Shown: positions 48,900-64,000 of the stretch, piece by piece
Layout: each line of letters opens with the position of its first letter
Numbering within the stretch: the first letter of the stretch is position 1
From: Schmidtea nova
Taxonomy: Eukaryota
Direction: 5' to 3'
NCBI GenBank assembly: GCA_044892505.1
Contig: CM097884.1
Span: 70,680,001 to 70,744,000 of the forward strand
Length of the DNA stretch: 64,000 nucleotides
Program-made: the position numbers and the translations under genes
Notes under the pieces: model-generated
Databases searched by the model: none
What the model was told of the DNA's origin: nothing
The model's input: the letters and a program-made list of their open reading frames with translations, nothing else

Positions 48900-51800
48900 T
48901 TTAATTATTTAATTATTTCTTTCTGGGGACACACCATTGATTTTATTTTTATATATTTGAATTCGTCTCATCAATCGGCATACACTCATACCAATTTCCC
49001 CCACCATATGTTGATTTTCAATTTTCTTAATTTTTAATTAATGTTTTTGTATTTTAATTAATTTGCAATTTTTTGTGTATTTATTAATATCTACTTAATT
49101 ATTTAAATTTTCACTTTAAATTTGAGTCACTTCTGTCCAACCCCAACAATTACCTTCATGAGTATTGTTCTATAGTGATGTTTGTCGGTACGGGCTCTAT
49201 TCTGGGGTGATCTGTTTGAGGTTCCATTCGATGTGAAAATACTTAGGTATTCGGCTTAAATTATTTTTACCTAAATTAATTTTCTTTAAAAGTGGTTCAA
49301 AATATAAAAGGAAAAATATAGAATCTATTTTCCGAAATAGACACAAATTCTACAAAAATGGGTAAAAATTCCATAAATTCGATAAAACCACTATTCAAAT
49401 ATCGGTGAATTAACCCTAAATGTTAGAGTAAGATGGTTTGCGTTAATAAGGGTTTTCGGGTCAATTTCTTATTTTGAAAGTTCAATTTCGTTTTTTATAA
49501 GGTAAATTTCGTACATAATTTAAATTTCATTTTATCCCTATGATTTTTCAAAATAATATGGAACGGGAGCAATCACTTAACAACCATGAAAATCCGATTT
49601 TCTTATTGATAATAATCAATCGAACCTTGCTAACGAAACGGGAAATGATATAATAAATCAGGATGAAGACCATCTATTCAACTATTAACAGCGAGAAACA
49701 GAAGGCAATCCTATAATAAAATGGATGGAAAGCGTAGATCGCGGATTATTCAAGCATGTAACAATGTTCAATCTGTAGCTTCAATAGTTGCATATGAAAA
49801 TTACAAAATAGCACCATATATAGTATCACTGATACCTTTAAAAAGACCAGAAGAACTGTTGCTATTCCTATAGGTGGATTGAGGCACAGTAAAGTAAATG
49901 ATGAAGTAAATGAATTTATAAGAAATCTTGTAGACAACGATTTTATCCTCTCGTTAAGACGCATTGAAGCTACTGTCTTGAATAACCTTGGCATTAACAT
50001 TTATAATCCCATTATTCACTAGAGCCTTAAAAATTTTTATTATTCATTGAAGCTGATAAAGCCTATTCCTCAAAGAAGGAAGATGAAGACGCTATTGCAA
50101 TGAGAAGACTTTATGCTAAAAATCTTTTAAACCTTGGTGAAAATTTTTCACCTAAACAAATTATTTTTCTTGATGAAGTGCGTTTCAGTATAAGTCTTAG
50201 AATTAAACATGGAAGAGCACCAGTAAGAACGACACCAACTACAATTGTCATAAACATCAGATCTAGAAATATTTATGTATGCTGCGCAATGACAAGGTGC
50301 GGTAAGTTATTAAAAAAAGTAAGTAATATACCATAAAAAGAAATTGAATTTCAATATTATCTGAATTCGATCTTTGAATATTTACGAGAAAGAAATCTTG
50401 ATAATTATGTTGTCATCATAGATAACATAGGATTTCACAAATGTTCATCGAAAAGAACTTTGTTGGAAGCAAATAGACACATAGTGATTTATTTACCTCC
50501 GTATTCACCTTCATTAAATCATTTTGAGGAATCATTTTCCAAATGGAAAAATGTTGTTAGAAGAGCTAATTCTACTAATGTTGAAGATTGGATGGTGGCA
50601 TTTGTAGATGGATGGAATAGTATATCAATAGAAGATTGTGATGGCTATTATAGGCACATGAAACGTGAATTACAAGTTGCAATGGAAAACCGTCCTTTCA
50701 ATTAAAAAATTACGTTGTTTATTTGAATTTTTTATTTTTAACAAAAACAAAATATTTATACTCAATATTTTTTTATATATACTGTTGGGCAAAAACTGCA
50801 AATTGTTTTAATAAAACGGTAACCACATAAGTAGAGAGAGCGCAAGATCCAATTTTAACACAAACATTCATTAAAACCCGACGTGATTAAGTGGAAAACA
50901 CCAAAAAGGTGAAATGGACTCAAGCACATCAACCAGTAGAGAACGCGCTAGCTTAGAATTTGTAAGTCTTTACACTGAAACCTCGAGAAAAATGAAAAGT
51001 TGTCAAGAGAAGAACATTTGAAAGTTAGAATAGGCGGAAAACCCATTGAAAATGCCCATAAAGAACAGAATTGTGTCATAAAACTTCAGTGCAGAAAAAA
51101 TTAACGAAATTTTAGAAGAAAATTGTGATTTTACCATAAAATTTCACATTAAAGATAAAAAGAACTAATTTTGATCGAAATATCGAAAATTAAATCAAAT
51201 TGAATAAATTTTGATTCAAAAATAAAAATTTTGGATTAAAAATAAATTATTTATGATTTATAAAAATTATTACGTAAAAATGTTGATTTAATTCGGCGGA
51301 AAATCATTAGAATTGATTTAGAAAAATTAAAAAGAACATTCTAAAACAATTTGTTTTACTGCATTAGTGAAGGTAACACACAAGCGATGGTATATATACC
51401 GCCATCAAAATGGCAATAGGCAGAATTTGTGTGAATTTTTCGTTAAAAATTTTAATTTAATTTTGAACAGAAGATTTTGCTGAAGATTTCATTTGAGCTC
51501 GCGTCAGATAATTTTGAACAGAAGATTTTGCTGAAGATTTTATTTGAGGTCGTGTCAGATAATTTGGAATCAGAAGTTTGCGGAAGAATTTGTTTGAACG
51601 AGAATTTTTCGAAAGAATTTGTCTAAAATTTTTATCAAAAATTTAAATCTTAGTCTGAACCAGAAATTTCGGAAGAATTGATTGGATGTAAGTGTCATTT
51701 TCTTGTTCGGTGCGGGGTCATTGAACATCATGCCCCTTTAATTACCCCGTACCGGTAGTATTTTATTTTGTATTTTATTTTGTTATTATTTTTATATTTT

Positions 51801-53027: not shown

Positions 53028-54192
53028 TGTTGGATGACGAGGGAAGACTCATAAAAACATTCAAAGTCAATAAGTATTATCATATCGGCAACAATAGATA
53101 CAGAATAAATATCTATCTGGAAAAATAACTCCCATCAATCGTCTGTCACAGTCATCATCCGTCTCAATATCCATCTCAATATCCGTCTCAAGTGCCCGTC
53201 TTAACCATCTCAATCCATCAGTAGAAATCCCTTTCGAAAAATAACTATAAACTATCTAAAACCCTAATTCACTCTACCAATCTCTGTGATCATCAATCAA
53301 CTATTGTCTGTCAATCTAAATATTTTAAATTATCTATGTGATCCGAACATTCTAAATTATCTGCATGATCTAAACATTTTAAATTATCTATGTGGTCATC
53401 TATCTATCAAACCCTTCGACTATGAACAATCCAGACTATCATCCTCATAAAAAATTGATCATGCATGAACTTTTAATATTGATTTTATTAATTTAGGATT
53501 TTATTTTATTTTTATTTTTATTAATATCAATATAAGTATTCAGTTAGATATTTCGAGATAATTATTATACCAAAACAGAATTTACTTCTGAATTGTTAAA
53601 TGTCAAATTTCCCCATTTGGGAATTTTCATAGAAAACATATCACTGCACACTATTATACAGTTCAATATATTGCTTATGACTTGAAGTCTTGTTCAACGT
53701 GCACAAAGTATTTAAACTTTAAAAAATTTGTATGTTAATTATTTCAAATGTCAAATTTTATAGTGTTAATAAAAATGTATATAGGAATAAATGTCAGGTT
53801 TTAGTGAATGCATGCCAAATTTTAGTATATAAGGAAAAGGCAATTCAGGCAAATTGCCATAAAATCTTATTTTTAAATTTAGCGTAATAGCTCTCTTAGG
53901 TACAAATCCTAAAGAGCGTTTAAAATAAGCCAGTTGGCTAAACAAAAAATAAGTTAAATATTTTTAAAGATTGCTAACTTTTGAAATCTGCACAAAATTT
54001 AAAGGATCTCAAAATCTGAAAGAGTTTGTAGTAGAAAGATTTTAAAGTCGTTGACAATTTTGTAAATTGTAATTGGTAAATTTTGTTATTTGAATAAACT
54101 TTATAAACAAGAGTCTTTTTGTCTTAATTATTTACATAGGAACCACCAACCCCCAGTTGAGATTTCAAGTATACATATTTGAGACCTCAACA
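53028..54192 (+). repeat. 5' LTR of giant retrotransposon (3' end firm, 5' end uncertain: TGTTGG 53028 or TGTTGA 52587)
   Basis: Ends ...CCTCAACA, 2 nt before the PBS. Contains ~12-bp tandem repeats (53157-53218) and 3x27-bp repeats (53315-53395). Confidence 0.55.
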
Positions 54193-54194
54193 TT

Positions 54195-54212
54195 TGGTGC
54201 CGCGAACCGGGA
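54195..54212 (+). promoter_or_regulatory. Primer binding site, tRNA-Phe-like
   Basis: TGGTGCCGCGAACCGGGA, 15 of 18 identical to the canonical tRNA-Phe PBS TGGTGCCGAAACCCGGGA as I recall it. Confidence 0.8.
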
Positions 54213-54443
54213 CAATAAAATATTATAATATCAATCGGGGGATAGGAATTGCGATCAGAGGGATAGTGTAATATATATTGGGAAAATATATCTATATTTA
54301 AATATTAATTGACCAAAATTAAACTCAAATTAAAGATATAAACACACAAGGTTAACAATAACAAAATAGGTAGAAAGATAAAGAAAGTCGATATAAAATC
54401 ACCTGAAATATTGCACAATTTAAGAAAAAAAGTAATTTACAAG

Positions 54444-55430
54444 ATGAGTAATAACAGTACAAGCAGCAGCAATAGTGGAAATAACAGTCATACAGAAAAC
54501 ACCAACAGTAATCATAATTTTATAAAAACATTACCAATAGAATCATATAAAGGAGACCCTGAAAAGTTCGACGACTTTTTTGCCGAAATCGCACAATAGG
54601 CAGAGGCTTGTGGATGGACAACAAATGAATTAAAACAACGAATCCCATTATATTTAAAGGGATATGCATTACAAGCATATAATAATTTAGCATGCAAAGG
54701 CATCAATTACAATGAATTAGTAAAAAAGGCATTTGGTGCAGGAGATCACACTAGTAGATTAATTGAGGATCAGTTTTGGAACGGAATCCAAAAATATTTA
54801 TACAAAGCATTAATTACAATAGAGTATGAAGACTTAAATGAGTTAGTTCAAAAAGCAAAACGTATTGAAGCAATACAAAGAGATAGATTTAAACCAGAGG
54901 TAGATGCTGTAGAAATTGAAAGACAACCTGAGGTAAAGCCTGAGTTGAGAAATAAAGATGATAGCATCCCTTGGGAAGAAATGAAACAATTATATTTGAA
55001 TTTTGTTAATAATAGACGAAGAGTTAGTCCAAGTAGAAGCCAATCAACTGAAAACAGGGGAAGGTTTAACAGTCCAGGAAATAAAAATTTCGATAATAGA
55101 AATAATTTTAAAGATAGTTATAAAAGGAATAATAATAGAGATAGTTTTAGAGACAATCGTTTTGATAATGATAGAGACAACAGAGACACTTTTAGAGACA
55201 GTCGTTCTGGTTATAACAGAAACAGTTACAATGGATACAATAGAAATAATAGAGATAATCGCTTTGAATATAATAGAAGAGATAATAGATATAGAGATAA
55301 TTCGAGAAATAGACAAGATAGCCCGGTAAGGTGAAATATGTATAATAATGATGGTAGAGATAAAGTAAATTTTAATGGACAAATAAAATGTTATAATTGC
55401 CAGAGGTATGGGCACTTAGCAAAAGTATGC
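54444..55430 (+). pseudogene. gag: Gag: capsid-like region, R/D/N-rich linker, CCHC knuckle, with two in-frame stops (TAG 54597, TGA 55332)
   Basis: One frame from ATG 54444: YKGDPEKFDDFF..AEACGW...PLYLKGYALQAY...DQFWNG, then CYNCQRYGHLAKVC at 55389-55430. Confidence 0.8.
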
Positions 55431-58400
55431 AATAAACCACGAGCTGGTTCACCAATTGGAGTAAGATTTAAAAATGAGCCTGAGATAAAACAGGTAAATA
55501 GTGCTGAGCTTGAGTCAGCAAATAAAGAGATAAATAATTTAAGAGAAGAATTAAAAGAATTTAAAATTCAATATGGAAGACTCATTGAGAGAAAACTTGA
55601 AATGTCTATAAATGAATTTAGCACTTTTACAAATGAGGTAGATATTGATAATGATGAGTTAAAAGAAATTAGAGAAGCAGATGAAGTATTTCTTACAGAA
55701 GAAAATAGACAAAAAGAATTAATAGAGGAATTTAAAGAGGTATTGTATAAGCAACCATTTGATGACAATGAAACATTAAGAGTAATCAATAAAATACAGG
55801 TTAATGGGATTGATTTAGAGAGACTTAGAAATTTGATACCAATGATGGTAAAGAGACAAAATGTAACGAGATTATTTGAATTAGAAATAGAAATAAAAGA
55901 GATGTTGAAATGTTATGGAGAATATATAAGAAAAAATGAAAAATTGCATGAAACACTAAATGTAACGATTGAATTAAATGATAATTATTTTTTTAGTATT
56001 AAACACAAGATGCATCCTTGCACTAAAGTGAGTAAATTAAAACGAATGGCAAGAGCCAAATGGCCAGGAACCATAGGAGAGAGAGATGTAATAAAATTAT
56101 ATTTTAATGGAATAGAACTATTGAATGACGAATATTTAATTGACTATGGGATAAACCCAGTAAGTGATAATATTGTGATAGCTACAATAGAAAAGCAAAC
56201 GATAAATGAAATAATGACACCAGCACCGTCAGTTGAGTTGAGTATAAATGAGGAAAATGATTTTGACAGGTTATTCAGAACATGGGATAAATCACCTAGT
56301 GAAACAATGAAATCGGTAACGGGGGAAGAAATTATATTTAAACCTATAGATGATAAATATAGTAAACTACAAGAAACAATAGAAAGAATAGCTGACGAAG
56401 CTAAAACAAAAGATGCAGAAACATCAAAGCGAGGTAGAGGAAGACCTCGAAAATCAGAAATTATAGAAAAATCAGAGAATAGAAAGACAGCAGAACGATT
56501 AAGAGAGATTGCAAATCAACAAAGACATGAACAATCAGAGTATGAAGATGATAATAATGAACTTAACAAAATAAAAGAAGTAATAAAAGCAATGAATATT
56601 AAGCTATTTCCAGAAACAAAGCCAACAGTACTAATTGAAAATATAACTGAAAGGATGATGTTAATTAAAAAGGATACTAAAGAACTAGCCACAGAGGAAG
56701 CAAATGAAAAAACAGTATTAAAAATCCTGTTTAATACAGGGATAGATAAAGATAAAATAATAACGGCCATGGCATACTTGGCCGCAAGATATAAAAAGCT
56801 CATAAAGGAAAATCCAAAAGAGCAATTAGAAAAAGTAGCAACAATGATGTTTAAAAGATTGAAAGAAGAGGCAATACCATGGATAAAAAGGAAAGGAGGA
56901 TGGAAAGTATTATATGATAAAGATATGACGAATAAAGAGAGTGATACAGATGATGTAATAAAACAATTAATAAAGAAAGCAACAGTAAAACCAAAGACAG
57001 AGAGTAAATCGATAACCTCCATAGTAATAGTCATAATCACCTTGTTATTAGATTTAATCAAGGGGGGCAATGCAATGGTAGCATATGATTGTCAAAATCC
57101 AAAGTGGGGACAAAAATACTCACTGTTAGATGTTGAAAATTGCCCTGAAGCAAATCCAACTAAATTAATCATGTCAGAGCCTCAAATATTCCATGTTTAT
57201 CAAGAATCAGACTTTATTCATACAGAGGCTAAAGAGTGCATAGTAAAGTATCAGGAGGAAGCATATATATGTCATGTTGGGGCAAGAACAGTGTTAAAAC
57301 CTACGTGGACACCCGAAGCAGTAATATTGTCGCCAATAGAGTGTGAAGATGCATTTAAAACAAAGAAAGTAAAATATAGCGGTCATAAAGGAATAGAACT
57401 AGAAGCAAGGATAGGAGCAAAAATGAGACAAGATGTGAATGTCGTGGGATGGACATCAAAAGGAGGATATTGTGAAGGAGGAGAATATACAATATGGGGC
57501 GAAAAACTGAGTAATGTTGTAGTAAGGAGACACTACATGGTAGAACTGAGAAAGTTCAAAGCATCATTCGACAGCAGCTCAAAGAAAATGATGATATACA
57601 AATTTTGTACATTAGAGGAATCTTATTGCGATACAGGAGAATCAATGCTAATATACAAAATAGATAAATACGATTGTCAGTTAACAAAATTAAAATCATT
57701 AAAATTTAGGGAAATCAAAGGAAAACAGTTCACAGAAGTAGACTCAAAAAGGGTGAGGGATCAAAAAAGGAAAACAACAATTGTACAAGAAAAAGATACA
57801 CCTACAATATATATGTCAGAATCTGAAAACGAAGCAATGAGGTTCGTTAGTAAAAGGAAAAGTGTAAAATGTGGTAAGGAAATAATACAAACTAATTATG
57901 AAGGGATATACATAAGCAAAGAAGAAGTCAAAGATGCAAAACAAAAAGTAAATAAATTCGACGTCAAACTTGCATCATACTTCAACAATAAAATCGATTT
58001 TTTCTATCATAACCAACTAGTACAATTAGATAAAGTATATCAATCAACAATTATGAGCGATTGCAAACTCAACAGAGAAATATTAAGGACAAAAATGGCA
58101 GTGGCGGTAACAAACCCAGATCTAATGGCACCAATAATCTTCTCAGAAGAAGGAACATTTGCAAGGATAGTAGGAGAAGTGATACAGACATTTCAATGTA
58201 AACCTGTTAGTGTATCGTTAGCAACAAATAATCAGTGCACTAATGAATTACCGGTAATATATAAAGGAGAAAGGGTATACCTTCAACCAATTACTAGAAT
58301 ATTAACAGAAAAAACATATATACCGAGAAAAATAGAAAAATGCACTAACTTATTAGACCCATTATACAAAATAAATGACGAAATGTGGATATCTATGTCA

Positions 58401-58913
58401 GATAGAAAGGAGGCAATGAAACCACTCAAATTAGAACTCATAGAGCTAGAAAAAAGATTAGAGTTCAAAGAAATCAACGATATGGACAGCAATGGTATAT
58501 ATACGAGAGAAGCTATAGAAAGTGCAAGAAAACATATGCTATTTCCAAACGAAAAAGAACGAGTACTTTCAATAATGGTTAACAGAGTTATCGAAGGAAG
58601 TTACGGAGGAAATTACAACTTTGATGTGTTATTATCAAAAGAATACTTCAAAAAAGTAGCATATAAAGTACTATATAGCATATGGGGATACTTTGCAGTC
58701 CTTGGAAACATGTTTTCTACAATCTTAGGTATATATTATACGGTTGCATTACTAAAAATGATATGTTCTTCTCTAGTATCACTGAGACAGTTAAAACAAG
58801 TATTTGGAAATTCATATAAATTATTAGCATGTTTGTGCCCATTTATAGCTAAATATCTTATTACGGCGAAACACGACAAGGAAATACGTTTAATAAAAGT
58901 CCAAAGGAATTGA
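55338..58913 (+). CDS. 1191-aa continuation of ORF1: zinc knuckle, ubiquitin-like domain, AT-hook, Bcl-2-like domain, signal/TM, envelope-type protein
   Basis: Ubl ~55953-56192 (KLYFNGIELLNDEYLIDYGI). KRGRGRPRK at 56427. BH1-like LFNTGIDKDKIITAMAY, BH2-like PWIKRKGGW. Hydrophobic SIVIVIITLLLDLI. Cys-rich ectodomain from AYDC (57075) to a C-terminal TM. Confidence 0.85.
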   Translation: MYNNDGRDKVNFNGQIKCYNCQRYGHLAKVCNKPRAGSPIGVRFKNEPEIKQVNSAELESANKEINNLREELKEFKIQYGRLIERKLEMSINEFSTFTNEVDIDNDELKEIREADEVFLTEENRQKELIEEFKEVLYKQPFDDNETLRVINKIQVNGIDLERLRNLIPMMVKRQNVTRLFELEIEIKEMLKCYGEYIRKNEKLHETLNVTIELNDNYFFSIKHKMHPCTKVSKLKRMARAKWPGTIGERDVIKLYFNGIELLNDEYLIDYGINPVSDNIVIATIEKQTINEIMTPAPSVELSINEENDFDRLFRTWDKSPSETMKSVTGEEIIFKPIDDKYSKLQETIERIADEAKTKDAETSKRGRGRPRKSEIIEKSENRKTAERLREIANQQRHEQSEYEDDNNELNKIKEVIKAMNIKLFPETKPTVLIENITERMMLIKKDTKELATEEANEKTVLKILFNTGIDKDKIITAMAYLAARYKKLIKENPKEQLEKVATMMFKRLKEEAIPWIKRKGGWKVLYDKDMTNKESDTDDVIKQLIKKATVKPKTESKSITSIVIVIITLLLDLIKGGNAMVAYDCQNPKWGQKYSLLDVENCPEANPTKLIMSEPQIFHVYQESDFIHTEAKECIVKYQEEAYICHVGARTVLKPTWTPEAVILSPIECEDAFKTKKVKYSGHKGIELEARIGAKMRQDVNVVGWTSKGGYCEGGEYTIWGEKLSNVVVRRHYMVELRKFKASFDSSSKKMMIYKFCTLEESYCDTGESMLIYKIDKYDCQLTKLKSLKFREIKGKQFTEVDSKRVRDQKRKTTIVQEKDTPTIYMSESENEAMRFVSKRKSVKCGKEIIQTNYEGIYISKEEVKDAKQKVNKFDVKLASYFNNKIDFFYHNQLVQLDKVYQSTIMSDCKLNREILRTKMAVAVTNPDLMAPIIFSEEGTFARIVGEVIQTFQCKPVSVSLATNNQCTNELPVIYKGERVYLQPITRILTEKTYIPRKIEKCTNLLDPLYKINDEMWISMSDRKEAMKPLKLELIELEKRLEFKEINDMDSNGIYTREAIESARKHMLFPNEKERVLSIMVNRVIEGSYGGNYNFDVLLSKEYFKKVAYKVLYSIWGYFAVLGNMFSTILGIYYTVALLKMICSSLVSLRQLKQVFGNSYKLLACLCPFIAKYLITAKHDKEIRLIKVQRN

Positions 58914-59523
58914 AGAAAGGCAATTATTGGTAGATGATGAAAACGATGAGGAAATAATTAAAGCGCATATATCACATGAAGGAAATGTACCACAACAAGG
59001 ACTATATGAAAACCAAAGAGAACAACTAAAAGAGCTACAAGAAAATATAGAAATCAAAATTCCTAGAGAAAACAAGAATTGTCACTGTGAACCTAAAAAG
59101 ATATATGGTTGTTATAACTTAGAAGTCGAAACAATGGAACGATTAGATGCAGCAAACGAAGCAAGACCAAGACTTAAAATAATTGTAAACAATATAATCA
59201 TAAATGCATTAGTAGATACAGGAGCAGCAACATCATTAATTAGAGAAGATCAACTGACAGATGATCAAAAAAGAAATATTATGAGCACAACAGATAAAGT
59301 AGTATCATTATCAGCACATTGTATTCCACTAAAGGGAGACATAGAACTAATAGTCGAAACACCAGAACAGGTAATAAACCACATATTTAAAGTGGTGCAA
59401 GAATGTAATAGCATATGTATATTGGGAATCGATATACTCAACAAGTTAGAAAATTGCATTATAGATTTAACAGATAATACGATAAAGAAAAAAGCAATTA
59501 AACATAAATCCAAGTTCACATAA
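58897..59523 (+). CDS. pol: Aspartic protease region of pol
   Basis: ALVDTGAATSLI and ILGIDIL motifs. Same frame as RT, separated only by TAA at 59521. Confidence 0.9.
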   Translation, partial: KSKGIEERQLLVDDENDEEIIKAHISHEGNVPQQGLYENQREQLKELQENIEIKIPRENKNCHCEPKKIYGCYNLEVETMERLDAANEARPRLKIIVNNIIINALVDTGAATSLIREDQLTDDQKRNIMSTTDKVVSLSAHCIPLKGDIELIVETPEQVINHIFKVVQECNSICILGIDILNKLENCIIDLTDNTIKKKAIKHKSKFT

Positions 59524-62500
59524 GTTGTTGCATTAGAAGCATTTGAATTGGAATATGAATGCGATCATATAATTCCCTTAAAAGTTAACATCAAAAGTGA
59601 GGACACTTTTATTTTTGAGCCAGAAACGGCAATTATACAAAATCAGAATATAATGCTAACCAATGAATGCGTAATTCCGAAGAAGGGAATAATACCATTG
59701 AGAATAGCAAATTATGAAAAAGGTAATGTTAAAATACACAAAGGTACGAAATTGGGAAAATTATTCAAAGGTGAATTAGAAAAAACGTACGAAGTCAGTG
59801 AGATAAGCGTGATGAAGGATAACGGCAAGGGAGTAGTCGAACCTAGTAAGATAAATAATATAAAATCATATGATAAGGTAAAAATTAATAATGAATACTT
59901 AACATTAACACAACAAGCACAACTACAAATATTGATAGATAAATATAGTGATGTTTTTGCAAAACATGAATTTGATCTAGGAGATACCGATATAATCAAA
60001 CATGTAATAGATACAGGTAATGCGAGACCAATCAAACAAAGACCATACAGCGTACCATATAAGTTAAGAGAGGAAATAAAACGACAAATAAAAGAACTAA
60101 ACGATGCAGGTGTAATAAAACAGAGTTTTTCACAGTGGGCATCACCCATTGTACCCGTTAAAAAGAAAGATGGAGAAATAAGAATGTGCATCGATTATCG
60201 CAAATTAAATGATGTAACAGTAAAAGACTCATACCCTTTCCCAAAAGCACAAGAGCAATACGATAAACTTAGGGATGCTAAGTATTTTTCAGTCATTGAT
60301 GCCAATAAGGGGTATATGCAAATTCAAATGGAAGAAGGGGATGCGGAAAAAACAGCATTTGTTATTGAGGATGGTTTATATGAGTACACACGACTACCTT
60401 TTGGATTAACTAACGCACCAGCTACATTTCAGCGTTTAATGAACACAATATTAGTAAATGTACAACACTGCGCAGTTTATATGGATGATATATTAATATC
60501 ATCAAAAACATTTGAGGAACATTTAAAGGATATAACAAATGTACTTGAGAGACTAAGAAAAGCAAGGATAAAAATTAAACCAACCAAATGTAAATGGGCA
60601 GAACCATCAGCATTATTTTTGGGGCATATAGTTACAGTTGAAGGGATAAAACCAAATCCAGAAAAAATAGAAGTCGTAAAAAAGTTCCCGATACCAAAAA
60701 CAGTGCAACAAGTACAAGGGTTTTTAGGTTTAACAGGCTATTACCGTAAATTTATACAAGATTATGCAAAGATAGCATCACCTATAATAGAACTAACAAA
60801 GGGAATTAAAACAAAAGGGGAATGCAAAGATGTGTTAATAGTCCAAGAAATTAACAATAAAGTTAACAAGATACAAAAGAAGTGGACAAAAGAACATCAG
60901 GAAGCATTCGATAAACTAAAAGAAAGATTGATAACAGCACCAGTGTTAAGGTACCCAGACTTCGAAAAACACTTTATAGTAATGACGGATGCCAGCGGGA
61001 AAGCCGTAGGAGCAGTCTTAGGTCAAGAGGAAGAGAAAGGGAAAGATTACGTAATAGCATATGCTAGCAAAACATTAAAAGGAGCACAGCTGAGGTATTC
61101 AACAATAGAGAAAGAATGTTACGCAATAGTATTTGCCCTAAAACAATTCAAACCATACATATATGGAACTGAAGTAATAATAAGAACGGACCATAAACCA
61201 TTAGAAGGCTTATGGAAACATAAGGATACATCAAGTAGACTACTAAAATGGGCAATGAAAATACAAGACATTCACTTGAAAATTATATATAAACCAGGTA
61301 GAATAAATAAAAACGCAGATGCACTGTCAAGAATACCAGAATTAGGAGCACTTGAAATATTTGCACTAGTAGCAGAAAAGCCAATCGATATATATGAGGA
61401 ACAGATGAAAGACCTAGAAATCAGCAGAATAAGAAATGAAATCAGAAAGGAAAGTAATTCAAAGTATAAAATATCAAAGAGATTAGTAGTAATAGAGGAT
61501 TTCAGTGGTAAACAATTAATAGTAGTACCTCAAAAATTAAGACAAATACTTCTATTACAATATCACGATGGAGCATTAGGAGGTCACTTATCATCTAGAA
61601 AAACAGCAAGTAGATTATTACAAAAATATTACTGGGAAGAGTTAAAGAAAGATGTTAAGAGATGGTGTAATGCGTGTACAATATGTGCAACAAGAAAAAA
61701 TACAGGTACTAAAACAAAAGCGCCGTTACATCCTATTCCAGCAACAACATCACCAATGGAACTATGTGCAATGGACTTCCTATGTAAATTACCTACTACA
61801 ATTAATGGGAATAAACATATACTAGTATTTAGTGATTATTTTACTAGATGGGCAGAAGCATTCCCAACAAAAGATGAAACAGCAGAAACCGTTGCTAAAT
61901 TACTCATAGAAAAAATAATTTTTAAGATAGGTACACCTAAAAGATTATTAACAGATAAAGGAACAAATTTTACTAGCGAATTAATAAAAAGGGTAGCTAA
62001 CATTTTTAACATGCAAAAGATCAACACAACAGCGTATCACCCTCAAACTGATGGGCTAGTAGAAAGGTTTAACGGGACATTATTAAGCAGACTAGCGGTC
62101 TTTGTAGGCAAAAATCAAAATGATTGGGACGAATACGTAAGTCAATGCACATACATCCATAATATCACTCCAAATGAAACAACAGGGTATTCACCGTATT
62201 ACTTAATGTTCTTAAGAGAACCAGCAACACCAATAGATACAATTTTTGAACCTCGAGTATCACAATATTTAGACGCACCAGACTATGTCACACTAATGCA
62301 GGAAAAACTGCAAGAAGTGTATAAAGTAGCTAATTTAAAAGTCAAATTTAGACAAGAACAGTACAAAGCCGACTATGACAAAAATAGTAAACCACATAAC
62401 TTTAAAGTAGGTGATAAGGTTAGACTTATGTCACCACAAGTAGGAAAAGGAAAAACAACAAAGCTAGCAAGACCATATAAAGGTCCATACGAAGTAGTTA

Positions 62501-63420
62501 AAGTAATAAATGAGAATCTACACCTACAAAAGCATAAGAATGAGGATCCAATAGTAGTACATGTTAACAGATGCAAATTAGCAGAGGCAGAGGTCACGAT
62601 AGATAAACCTCACAAGTATAATCTTAGGTCTCAGAACAAGCTAATAATATCGGCTATCTTCTTAACAATCATAACAGTTGTTGGTTCAACCAAAACACTA
62701 GAATTTGACAAATTATTAATAAAAATATCAACAAACGAAGTCAGAGTATTTATCATAAACAGGGGAGTAATCGACATATACATGCAAACAACAGATAAAG
62801 AAAATCCAAAGATGATAAAAAGAAAAGAGGACAGTACAACCAAGGAAATCGAAAGAGGAAACTATGTTAACTTCACAAAACTAACACCTAATACAATATA
62901 CAGAATCTGCATACAGAGAGACACAGATACAACAATATGGAGATGCAAGAGAATAAAAACAGAACAACTACCCAAAGATCCAAGTATAACAAAAAAGACG
63001 ACAATAACACCAGATAGAACAGAAAGCACAAGAACAAAGACAACGACAACAAACAATTTATTAAATATCACTGCACATATAGACAAAAAAACAACATACA
63101 CTAGAATAACAAAATTCCAAAAACAACAACAAAAACAAAAATATATCAAAATAAAACAAGGAAAACCAATAGTTATACATAACTTAGAGGAATTACAAGC
63201 ATTTCAAAAAAAGGATAAAAAGCCACATTGGCCATATTATGTAATCACAGCATCGGTAATAACATTAGCAGTCTTAGCTTTAGTAACTAGCACACAAATA
63301 TACAAAAAGTACAAATGGAAAAGGCAGCGGTATCGGAGCCGACTGGTCAAAGATGTACCAGGACATTTCCATTTGGGTAAATACATACCTGGCATATACA
63401 CATTATCAACACAAGTATGA
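59524..63420 (+). CDS. pol: Pol: RT, RNase H, integrase, plus a C-terminal membrane-protein extension
   Basis: WASPIVPVKKKDGEIRMCIDYRKLN, LPFGLTNAPATFQ, YMDD (60478), TDASGKAVGAVL, TDHKPL, HHCC finger, MDFL/TDKG/VERFN, GPY motif. Frame stays open ~265 aa past the integrase. Confidence 0.96.
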   Translation, partial: VVALEAFELEYECDHIIPLKVNIKSEDTFIFEPETAIIQNQNIMLTNECVIPKKGIIPLRIANYEKGNVKIHKGTKLGKLFKGELEKTYEVSEISVMKDNGKGVVEPSKINNIKSYDKVKINNEYLTLTQQAQLQILIDKYSDVFAKHEFDLGDTDIIKHVIDTGNARPIKQRPYSVPYKLREEIKRQIKELNDAGVIKQSFSQWASPIVPVKKKDGEIRMCIDYRKLNDVTVKDSYPFPKAQEQYDKLRDAKYFSVIDANKGYMQIQMEEGDAEKTAFVIEDGLYEYTRLPFGLTNAPATFQRLMNTILVNVQHCAVYMDDILISSKTFEEHLKDITNVLERLRKARIKIKPTKCKWAEPSALFLGHIVTVEGIKPNPEKIEVVKKFPIPKTVQQVQGFLGLTGYYRKFIQDYAKIASPIIELTKGIKTKGECKDVLIVQEINNKVNKIQKKWTKEHQEAFDKLKERLITAPVLRYPDFEKHFIVMTDASGKAVGAVLGQEEEKGKDYVIAYASKTLKGAQLRYSTIEKECYAIVFALKQFKPYIYGTEVIIRTDHKPLEGLWKHKDTSSRLLKWAMKIQDIHLKIIYKPGRINKNADALSRIPELGALEIFALVAEKPIDIYEEQMKDLEISRIRNEIRKESNSKYKISKRLVVIEDFSGKQLIVVPQKLRQILLLQYHDGALGGHLSSRKTASRLLQKYYWEELKKDVKRWCNACTICATRKNTGTKTKAPLHPIPATTSPMELCAMDFLCKLPTTINGNKHILVFSDYFTRWAEAFPTKDETAETVAKLLIEKIIFKIGTPKRLLTDKGTNFTSELIKRVANIFNMQKINTTAYHPQTDGLVERFNGTLLSRLAVFVGKNQNDWDEYVSQCTYIHNITPNETTGYSPYYLMFLREPATPIDTIFEPRVSQYLDAPDYVTLMQEKLQEVYKVANLKVKFRQEQYKADYDKNSKPHNFKVGDKVRLMSPQVGKGKTTKLARPYKGPYEVVKVINENLHLQKHKNEDPIVVHVNRCKLAEAEVTIDKPHKYNLRSQNKLIISAIFLTIITVVGSTKTLEFDKLLIKISTNEVRVFIINRGVIDIYMQTTDKENPKMIKRKEDSTTKEIERGNYVNFTKLTPNTIYRICIQRDTDTTIWRCKRIKTEQLPKDPSITKKTTITPDRTESTRTKTTTTNNLLNITAHIDKKTTYTRITKFQKQQQKQKYIKIKQGKPIVIHNLEELQAFQKKDKKPHWPYYVITASVITLAVLALVTSTQIYKKYKWKRQRYRSRLVKDVPGHFHLGKYIPGIYTLSTQV

Positions 63421-63541
63421 TATAAATTGGTCAATAATATTTATTAAAATTATATATATGTATATCTATATTTTGGTGTATGAGGGAAAACCAGCATTAC
63501 ACTTCAAACTTAAAATTATTTATTTAATTTGTAGAAAGAAA

Positions 63542-64000
63542 ATGTACAATAGCAATCAACCCGACAGACAATCAAATAGACAATTCAGTCAGCACCCAAA
63601 CAAACAATTCAAACAACACAACCAACCCAATCGTCAACACCCATACAAACAAAGTCAATCTCACAATAAATCGTTTGAAAAGTACGATCAAATGTTCAAA
63701 CAAAACGAGCAACCCGCATCTTATCAAAAATACACCTGTTTTATAAACAAACTGGGAAACAGTTTTTATAAAAATATCCAAAACAAAATCAGTACAGACG
63801 GACAACCTATCACCATAAGAAATTTCCCTAACCAAGTCTGCATACCCAATGAAATGAAGACAGACATCGAAGAGAGAGAAATGAGTATAATCAAATTTAA
63901 TGATGCTCGAAGAGTCAAACTCCGAGAACTCATTGGAAGTTTCGATCAATATAAAAATGTGGATAAAGCGGTGGCAGAAGGTAAAAAAGTACCCCACCAG
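63542..64000 (+). CDS. Additional ORF downstream of pol, 3'-truncated by the window (at least 153 aa)
   Basis: ATG at 63542, no stop to the window end (hence absent from the ORF track): MYNSNQPDRQSNRQFSQHPNKQ...AEGKKVPHQ. Confidence 0.7.
   Translation, partial: MYNSNQPDRQSNRQFSQHPNKQFKQHNQPNRQHPYKQSQSHNKSFEKYDQMFKQNEQPASYQKYTCFINKLGNSFYKNIQNKISTDGQPITIRNFPNQVCIPNEMKTDIEEREMSIIKFNDARRVKLRELIGSFDQYKNVDKAVAEGKKVPHQ

Follow-up and report, generated by a model that had tools for sequence, protein, structure and literature searches.

A predicted class III fusogen between gag and pol in a young, high-copy Ty3/gypsy retrotransposon family of Schmidtea nova

The stretch analysed here, 64,000 nucleotides of Schmidtea nova DNA (assembly GCA_044892505.1, contig CM097884.1, positions 70,680,001 to 70,744,000 of the forward strand; hereafter ‘the window’), holds a long terminal repeat (LTR) retrotransposon of the Ty3/gypsy type, 13.5 kb from LTR to LTR, which runs past the window's end and in which an envelope-type (Env) domain lies between gag and pol. 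All features described are on the forward strand. The 5′ LTR (53028–54192; 1,165 bp, TGTTG…CAACA) is identical at 1,165/1,165 bases to the 3′ LTR beyond the window's end (L021:2406–3570), with a 4-bp target duplication, CTTT. A primer-binding site at 54195–54212 is complementary to the 3′ end of the host tRNA-Phe(GAA), as judged from matching host tRNA genes; the 30 nt ahead of the 3′ LTR (L021:2376–2405) contain no plain purine run and hence no plain polypurine tract. Gag (54444–55433) ends in a CCHC zinc knuckle (55383–55433; zf-CCHC E 6e-4, under the cut-off), and Env (57075–58910) is followed by an aspartic protease (PR) with a DTG motif (59158–59451; RVP E 5e-8), reverse transcriptase (RT) plus RNase H (RH) (60157–61269), and an integrase (IN) with H2C2, core and SH3-like end (61525–62517). 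The TG…CA LTRs, target duplication, tRNA primer site and Pol order PR-RT-RH-IN, with gypsy-type RNase H and H2C2 integrase by Pfam, place the element in Ty3/gypsy (Metaviridae). Identity with Troyka is ruled out by the TG…CA LTR ends and the 4-bp target duplication.

The Env stretch is open for 612 codons, starts MVAYDC, and matches PF24664 (Monjiviricetes_fusion) at E 3.1e-85; this match, together with 1,182 relatives at E≤0.001, is not due to chance. An initial annotation, made from the letters alone, had described a VAYDC start, three sequence blocks, a signal-like segment ahead and a transmembrane segment near the end, and had proposed a chuvirus-type glycoprotein in a Gypsy element upstream of the protease, all of which is borne out. 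The start and blocks are present, the candidate signal segment lies at 57012–57068 (hydropathy 2.1), with a similar hydrophobic segment ahead of [AG][YF]DC in 15/15 relatives printed, and the candidate transmembrane segment lies near 58698–58784 (moderate hydropathy, 1.5–1.6). The description as a Cys-rich region of about 610 residues was right as to length and overstated as to composition (17/612 residues are Cys); what matters is that 14/14 ectodomain Cys are conserved at ≥90% among 116 sequences.

Modelled from a 96-row alignment (mean pLDDT 88.9), Env shows a long helix at residues 299–346, as in the multi-domain class III fold of herpesvirus gB, a predicted fold that it would share with gB and with Jingchuvirales glycoproteins. 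Foldseek against the PDB gave herpesvirus gB in 38/38 rows shown (best E 8.7e-14), and the VIA search, which is independent of Foldseek, placed five gB chains on top (Z 10.5–8.5; for herpes simplex virus 1 gB, Z 10.5, root-mean-square deviation (rmsd) 9.5, 430 aligned), followed by thogotovirus and rabies glycoproteins at Z about 6. The top match in a viral structure library was a chu-like virus glycoprotein (E 3.8e-40, 21% identity). Identity was 17–22% to the best viral-library matches and 9–12% to gB, and at the sequence level Env had no match in the PDB. From these models, the domain (ectodomain, transmembrane segment and cytoplasmic tail) is a predicted class III fusogen, the fold for which the initial annotation had suggested structure prediction as a check.

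The absence of a usable N-x-S/T sequon, also remarked upon initially, was confirmed: the only one is NPT at residue 27, and there was no usable sequon in 24/24 copies, though the deficit relative to chance is marginal (none, where 2.6 would be expected; 4.7% of 300 shuffles gave as few). Embedded relatives of Env have between one and five sequons each (17/17), so that a sequon-free Env is a trait of this element family, of marginal weight. Avoidance of N-glycans by the whole clade was rejected (37 sequons seen against 54.8 expected in 18 embedded Envs, with one to five per relative), and 82 stand-alone glycoproteins gave 275 against 298.4 expected.

In the window copy, Env closes a 1,192-codon frame (55335–58913) that opens at the Gag zinc knuckle, and it had been taken as a gene of its own with a natural end at 58913. 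Sister copies correct both points. Intact ones read Gag, a ubiquitin-like domain, a Bcl-2-like domain, Env, PR, RT, RH and IN in a frame of ~3,060 aa, and Env is therefore a domain of a polyprotein; because sister copies read env into the protease, the stop at 58913 is a by-product of a frameshift in the window copy. Among nine other copies, chosen by env likeness and from the plus strand only, the Env transmembrane segment and protease were co-framed in 8/9 and the whole 3,068-aa frame was uninterrupted in 1/9. Open frames of 3,057–3,082 aa hold 24/150 scored matches to a domain encoded after integrase (manual count), and gag, env, RT and the post-integrase part were co-framed in 15/20 copies, a figure that is not a rate, these having been selected for long frames and spread of identity. 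Database polyproteins of five relatives (P0002, P0003, P0007, P0019 and P0021) likewise have env ahead of PR-RT-IN. A programmed env-pol frameshift was rejected, given read-through in 8/9 copies.

The window copy itself has stops at 54597, 55332 and 59521 and a frameshift near 58910, and, with its frame broken at these four sites, is unable to make the polyprotein; its gag also has an in-frame deletion of 129 nt near 54714–54727. These three stops, frameshift and deletion (all within 54193–59523) are present despite identical LTRs, a combination for which trans-copying of a defective template, conversion of the LTRs or a faulty assembly may account.

A second gag-env-pol family in the same genome (L040–L043) has the same domain order in a frame of 3,427–3,442 aa. 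It is the more abundant of the two (a query with a related Env drew 2,749 candidates at first look), and has four knuckles, what look by eye like two ubiquitin-like stretches, a longer post-integrase ectodomain, and a Gag that matches Retrotrans_gag at E 8e-7.

A genome search with env gave 557 candidates, and 40/40 of those scored were at ≥99% identity. With identical LTRs, a target duplication and near-identical env copies, the element family is young and many-copy. Selection was measured as the pooled pairwise ratio of non-synonymous to synonymous rates (dN/dS) in 23–25 sequences per domain (the window plus 24 chosen copies, those covering <80% of a domain being excluded), in which the pairs are not independent. 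The ratio was 0.05 for the Env ectodomain, compared with 0.02 for RT, 0.05 for RH, 0.04 for IN and 0.10 for PR; elsewhere in the frame it was 0.17 for the knuckle to ubiquitin-like part, 0.23 for the Bcl-2-like domain, 0.33 for a post-integrase domain of fibronectin type III (FN3) fold, 0.33 for the transmembrane segment and tail that follow it, and 0.79 for the stalk between. Variable columns numbered 18/530 in Env against 30/91 in the stalk. Env is thus held by strong purifying selection, like integrase.

Env also moves as a block. In 18 copies whose RT was 93–94% identical to that of the window, env was 98.4–98.9% identical in 14, 96.9% in one and 93% in three, and a Bcl-2/env block (56550–58664) is common, at 97–99%, to subfamilies (L044–L062) that diverge by 6–7% in RT and by 10–17% after integrase. 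Such mosaic copies would fit template switching between subfamilies.

Beyond integrase, and in the polyprotein frame, lies a predicted second type I membrane protein (62641–63420), with a signal-like segment (62641–62697), an FN3-fold domain (62692–62970), a Thr-rich stalk (62971–63225), a transmembrane segment (63238–63294) and a short tail, as proposed from hydropathy and a fold model. The 93-residue domain was modelled as a beta-sandwich (pLDDT 69.5). FN3 domains make up most of its 50 VIA rows (best Z 8.4, rmsd 2.7, 76 aligned), Foldseek matches were weak (E 0.003–0.02), Pfam fn3 gave no match at E≤1, and look-alikes in the Atlas, at the level of a lead, were FN3 proteins (0.84–0.89). This protein is more variable than Env and, unlike Env, has sequons: one in the FN3 domain in 25/25 sequences and one to three in the stalk in 23/23. 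Some copies were chosen partly for FN3 divergence, which may inflate FN3 dN, and a ratio of 0.33 does not support positive selection on the domain. Two hydrophobic segments after integrase are also found in the second family and in P0002, P0007 and P0019, but not in P0003; P0021 stops within integrase. Sequence kinship between the post-integrase ectodomains of different families was not significant, and their homology is unsupported, since they have in common only layout and an L-x-P-x-T-x-Y motif (window, P0002, P0007). There were no short homologues of the post-integrase part among 1,495 candidates. No published account of a post-integrase signal-FN3-stalk-transmembrane protein was found in the literature as available, although Grohme 2018, Sacco 2022, Repbase, or figures and supplements may note one.

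The Env stretch, we consider with high probability, is the envelope part of a gag-env-pol element of the Ty3/gypsy type, young and present in many copies, whose intact copies encode Gag, Env and Pol in one frame and whose predicted class III fusogen likely fuses particles into neighbouring cells. In the working that we propose, the polyprotein would be threaded through the endoplasmic reticulum (ER) membrane with four crossings: Gag and the ubiquitin-like and Bcl-2-like domains would stay cytosolic, and Env, led by the internal signal, would enter the lumen. A cut by host signal peptidase near MVAYDC would give Env its free start, and the hydrophobic segment would remain attached to the Gag/Bcl-2 piece as its tail anchor. 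At the Env transmembrane segment the chain would cross back into the cytosol; there PR, RT-RH and IN would be cut out by the element's own protease, and the second signal and transmembrane segment would put the FN3-stalk protein on the same membrane face as Env. A polyprotein cut by both signal peptidase and its own protease is an arrangement of the flavivirus type. One-to-one amounts of Gag, Env, Pol and the FN3-stalk protein would result, held together at a single membrane; budding particles would carry both surface proteins and be fused into other cells by Env; the Bcl-2-like piece, with its membrane tail, may damp cell death, though its BH1 is degenerate.

Several observations weigh against this. 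The Foldseek matches superpose on solved gB structures at a TM-score of only ~0.4 and rmsd of ~10 Å. No R-x-K/R-R furin site was found in Env, although such a site is not always retained in this Env type, according to the available text of PMC13524379 (Chary and Hayashi, eLife 2026). Viral glycoproteins that face the lumen seldom lack usable sequons, as this Env does, and a simple indicator of ER entry is thereby missing. The Env signal and transmembrane segments are predictions from hydropathy, the latter just moderately hydrophobic.

The most serious competitor, though one we hold improbable, is that Env is kept and folded but acts within the cell or at cell contacts, in internal budding or in fusion of vesicles or adjacent cells, with no free infectious particle. 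One-to-one synthesis of Gag and Pol differs from that of most retroviruses and would suit this alternative, as would the lack of sequons and, weakly, searches of IMG/VR contigs, in which seven pattern matches to Env yielded no confirmed relative; cell entry of gB-type errantiviruses is, moreover, stated to be an open question in the parts of PMC13524379 available. Yet selection on Env equals that on integrase, and a second predicted surface protein, with a sequon in all 25 FN3 domains, better fits an outward-facing particle. It could be argued instead that Env is a passenger, its frame open merely since Pol lies downstream; any stop in env would cost the element Pol as well, and an open frame alone is accordingly no proof of function. 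The amino acids of a passenger would drift, whereas Env is constrained in the same frame in which the stalk is free to vary, and 14/14 of its ectodomain Cys are conserved. The dN/dS values largely refute the passenger explanation, to which we attach almost no credence.

The initial annotation had favoured a different origin, an independent capture of a chuvirus glycoprotein by this family at an atypical position. That chu-like virus glycoproteins are the best viral structure matches and that the Pfam family is Monjiviricetes_fusion would agree with this, as would the spread of gag-env-pol elements over more than one clade of the POL tree in PMC13524379, in its available parts. The comparison of glycoprotein and RT proposed at the outset gave a divided answer: over eight elements identity in Env tracks identity in RT (Mantel r 0.71, p 0.006; weak, kinship being shared), against capture, whereas small trees of env and RT place the window element differently, in its favour. 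In a larger but quick tree, which used 45/82 stand-alone rows and no named viruses, the window Env fell in a set of 16 (15 polyprotein-embedded and one fragment; SH-aLRT 100) apart from 44/45 of the stand-alone glycoproteins. P0097, whose glycoprotein follows DUF5641, a BEL/Pao-linked domain, lay outside the window Env clade. The 17–22% identity to viral matches also compares poorly with 35–40% for the closest retroelement polyprotein Envs and with 71% for Smed_errantivirus_3 (175/246 residues over domains I–II, a hand count against the partly available PMC13524379), and capture by the window family is very improbable. Phage records gave no Env match, and a word-index search at Env length gave one match only.

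Nor is the position atypical. As described in the accessible portions of PMC13524379, errantiviruses of Nematoda, Bryozoa and Platyhelminthes have a gB-type Env and GAG-ENV-POL order in several POL clades, and an Env in frame between BCL2 and PR was reported for Burro elements, as the first such case, in the portions available of PMC6431247 (Arkhipova and Yushenova 2019). Env between gag and pol is thus already in print and is the normal position in a described group, an outcome that the initial annotation had itself named as refuting its proposal, and the window element is one more family. The order may have several origins, but these would be old and lie outside this family. The window element has the traits of the Platyhelminthes GAG-ENV-POL errantiviruses: Ty3/gypsy Pol, that gene order, a gB-like ectodomain between signal and transmembrane segment, many near-identical copies and closeness to a described member. 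Smed_errantivirus_3 itself shares only 32–38% with Smed_1 or _2 (PMC13524379, available part), and the second S. nova family resembles Smed_errantivirus_1 by eye, in so far as that source shows it. The main text of PMC13524379, as available, does not mention ‘polyprotein’, ‘fibronectin’, ‘Bcl’, ‘exonuclease’ or ‘glycosyl’, whereas the window element has one frame, an FN3 protein and a second open reading frame (ORF2); the table there, so far as available, gives no primer tRNA for six Schmidtea elements, in contrast to the tRNA-Phe site found here.

The single polyprotein recalls Burro/GYPSM1, in which Gag, CCHC knuckles, Ubi2/SUMO-like, BCL-2, Env, PR, RT, RH and IN are encoded in series (PMC6431247, in part), and flatworm gag-env-pol elements use one reading frame, as the giant Burro elements do. 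Burro elements exceed 30 kb, compared with 13.5 kb, and carry BIR, ankyrin or MATH cargo, none of which Pfam detects in the window element; the available account mentions no post-integrase membrane protein, likens Burro Env to gypsy Env and mononegavirus fusion proteins, and leaves its fold class unsettled (PMC6431247). The window element has a Burro-like build and is not classed as Burro. The same Pfam glycoprotein family occurs on LTR elements of another superfamily, the Anakin BEL/Pao elements (PMC10084718, in part), and the same glycoprotein is tied to Chuviridae and mosquito BEL/Pao elements in the available text of PMC13524379. What the window family offers is a clean, compact, recently active example of a gag-env-pol element, with an Env under constraint equal to that on integrase and with a candidate for a second surface protein.

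That second protein may be an attachment partner of Env, and it is a concrete candidate for the entry question left open for gB-type errantiviruses (PMC13524379, part available). A bolder and tentative possibility, rather doubtful at present, is a two-part entry machine made from one polyprotein, in which a conserved, glycan-free class III fusogen would work with a variable, glycosylated FN3-stalk attachment protein, the modules being recombined between subfamilies. If true, a retrotransposon would have a division of labour like that of herpes- and paramyxoviruses, which would explain how errantiviruses with gB alone find cells without gD, gH or gL.

Three features lie between the zinc knuckle and Env. 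A weak ubiquitin/SUMO-like domain (55998–56156; PF11976 E 0.029, PF00240 E 0.053) is followed by a weak AT-hook-like GRGRP motif (56427–56456; E 0.19–0.43), of a kind seen by eye in relatives P0001, P0003, P0008 and P0020, and by the BH1-BH2 part of a Bcl-2-like domain (56706–56903; PF00452, 33 bits against a cut-off of 31.4; Bcl-xL E 0.004), in which DKDK aligns to the NWGR of Bcl-xL BH1, a degenerate BH1.

ORF2 starts at 63542 and continues past 64000 (stop-to-stop frame 63287 to L021:2506), its frame ending 100 bp within the 3′ LTR. It encodes a DEDDh exonuclease domain of ISG20/REX4 likeness whose catalytic set is degenerate in the window family, whereas ORF2 of the second family (L041:3226–4704) retains the DEDDh catalytic pattern; the two match at E 7e-19, and the latter matches ISG20L2 at E 8e-8. 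Bdelloid rotifer LTR elements likewise have an extra frame after pol, ORF3s with a DEDD exonuclease, there of DEDDy type (PMC5408684, in the part available). A splice-acceptor-like site (63534, in 63515–63544) lies 7 nt ahead of the ORF2 ATG, and the second family has one a few bases ahead of its own (L041 near 3240). As to expression, no RNA record that contains the element was listed. No splice donor matched a strict pattern in 54193–54700, and contigs of two runs of unknown kind, with all 30 bins covered, showed no GT-AG joints, a result uninformative on splicing.

Some minor observations concern the host genome and the relatives. Host tRNA-Phe(GAA) genes matching the primer site form a tandem array of 240-bp units (L064–L066, near 566.9 Mb), and the tRNA-Phe(GAA) pattern has 2,591 matches across the genome. 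Two or three aspartic-protease-like domains each were seen in P0003, P0007, P0008, P0009 and P0015. P0002, a 2,627-aa gag-env-pol polyprotein labelled Flavobacteriaceae, is most likely of animal origin, its DNA having ended up among binned bacterial sequences. Ahead of the element, at 50031–50705 in the window, are two short frames that by eye resemble what we take to be a broken transposase of the Tc1/mariner type.

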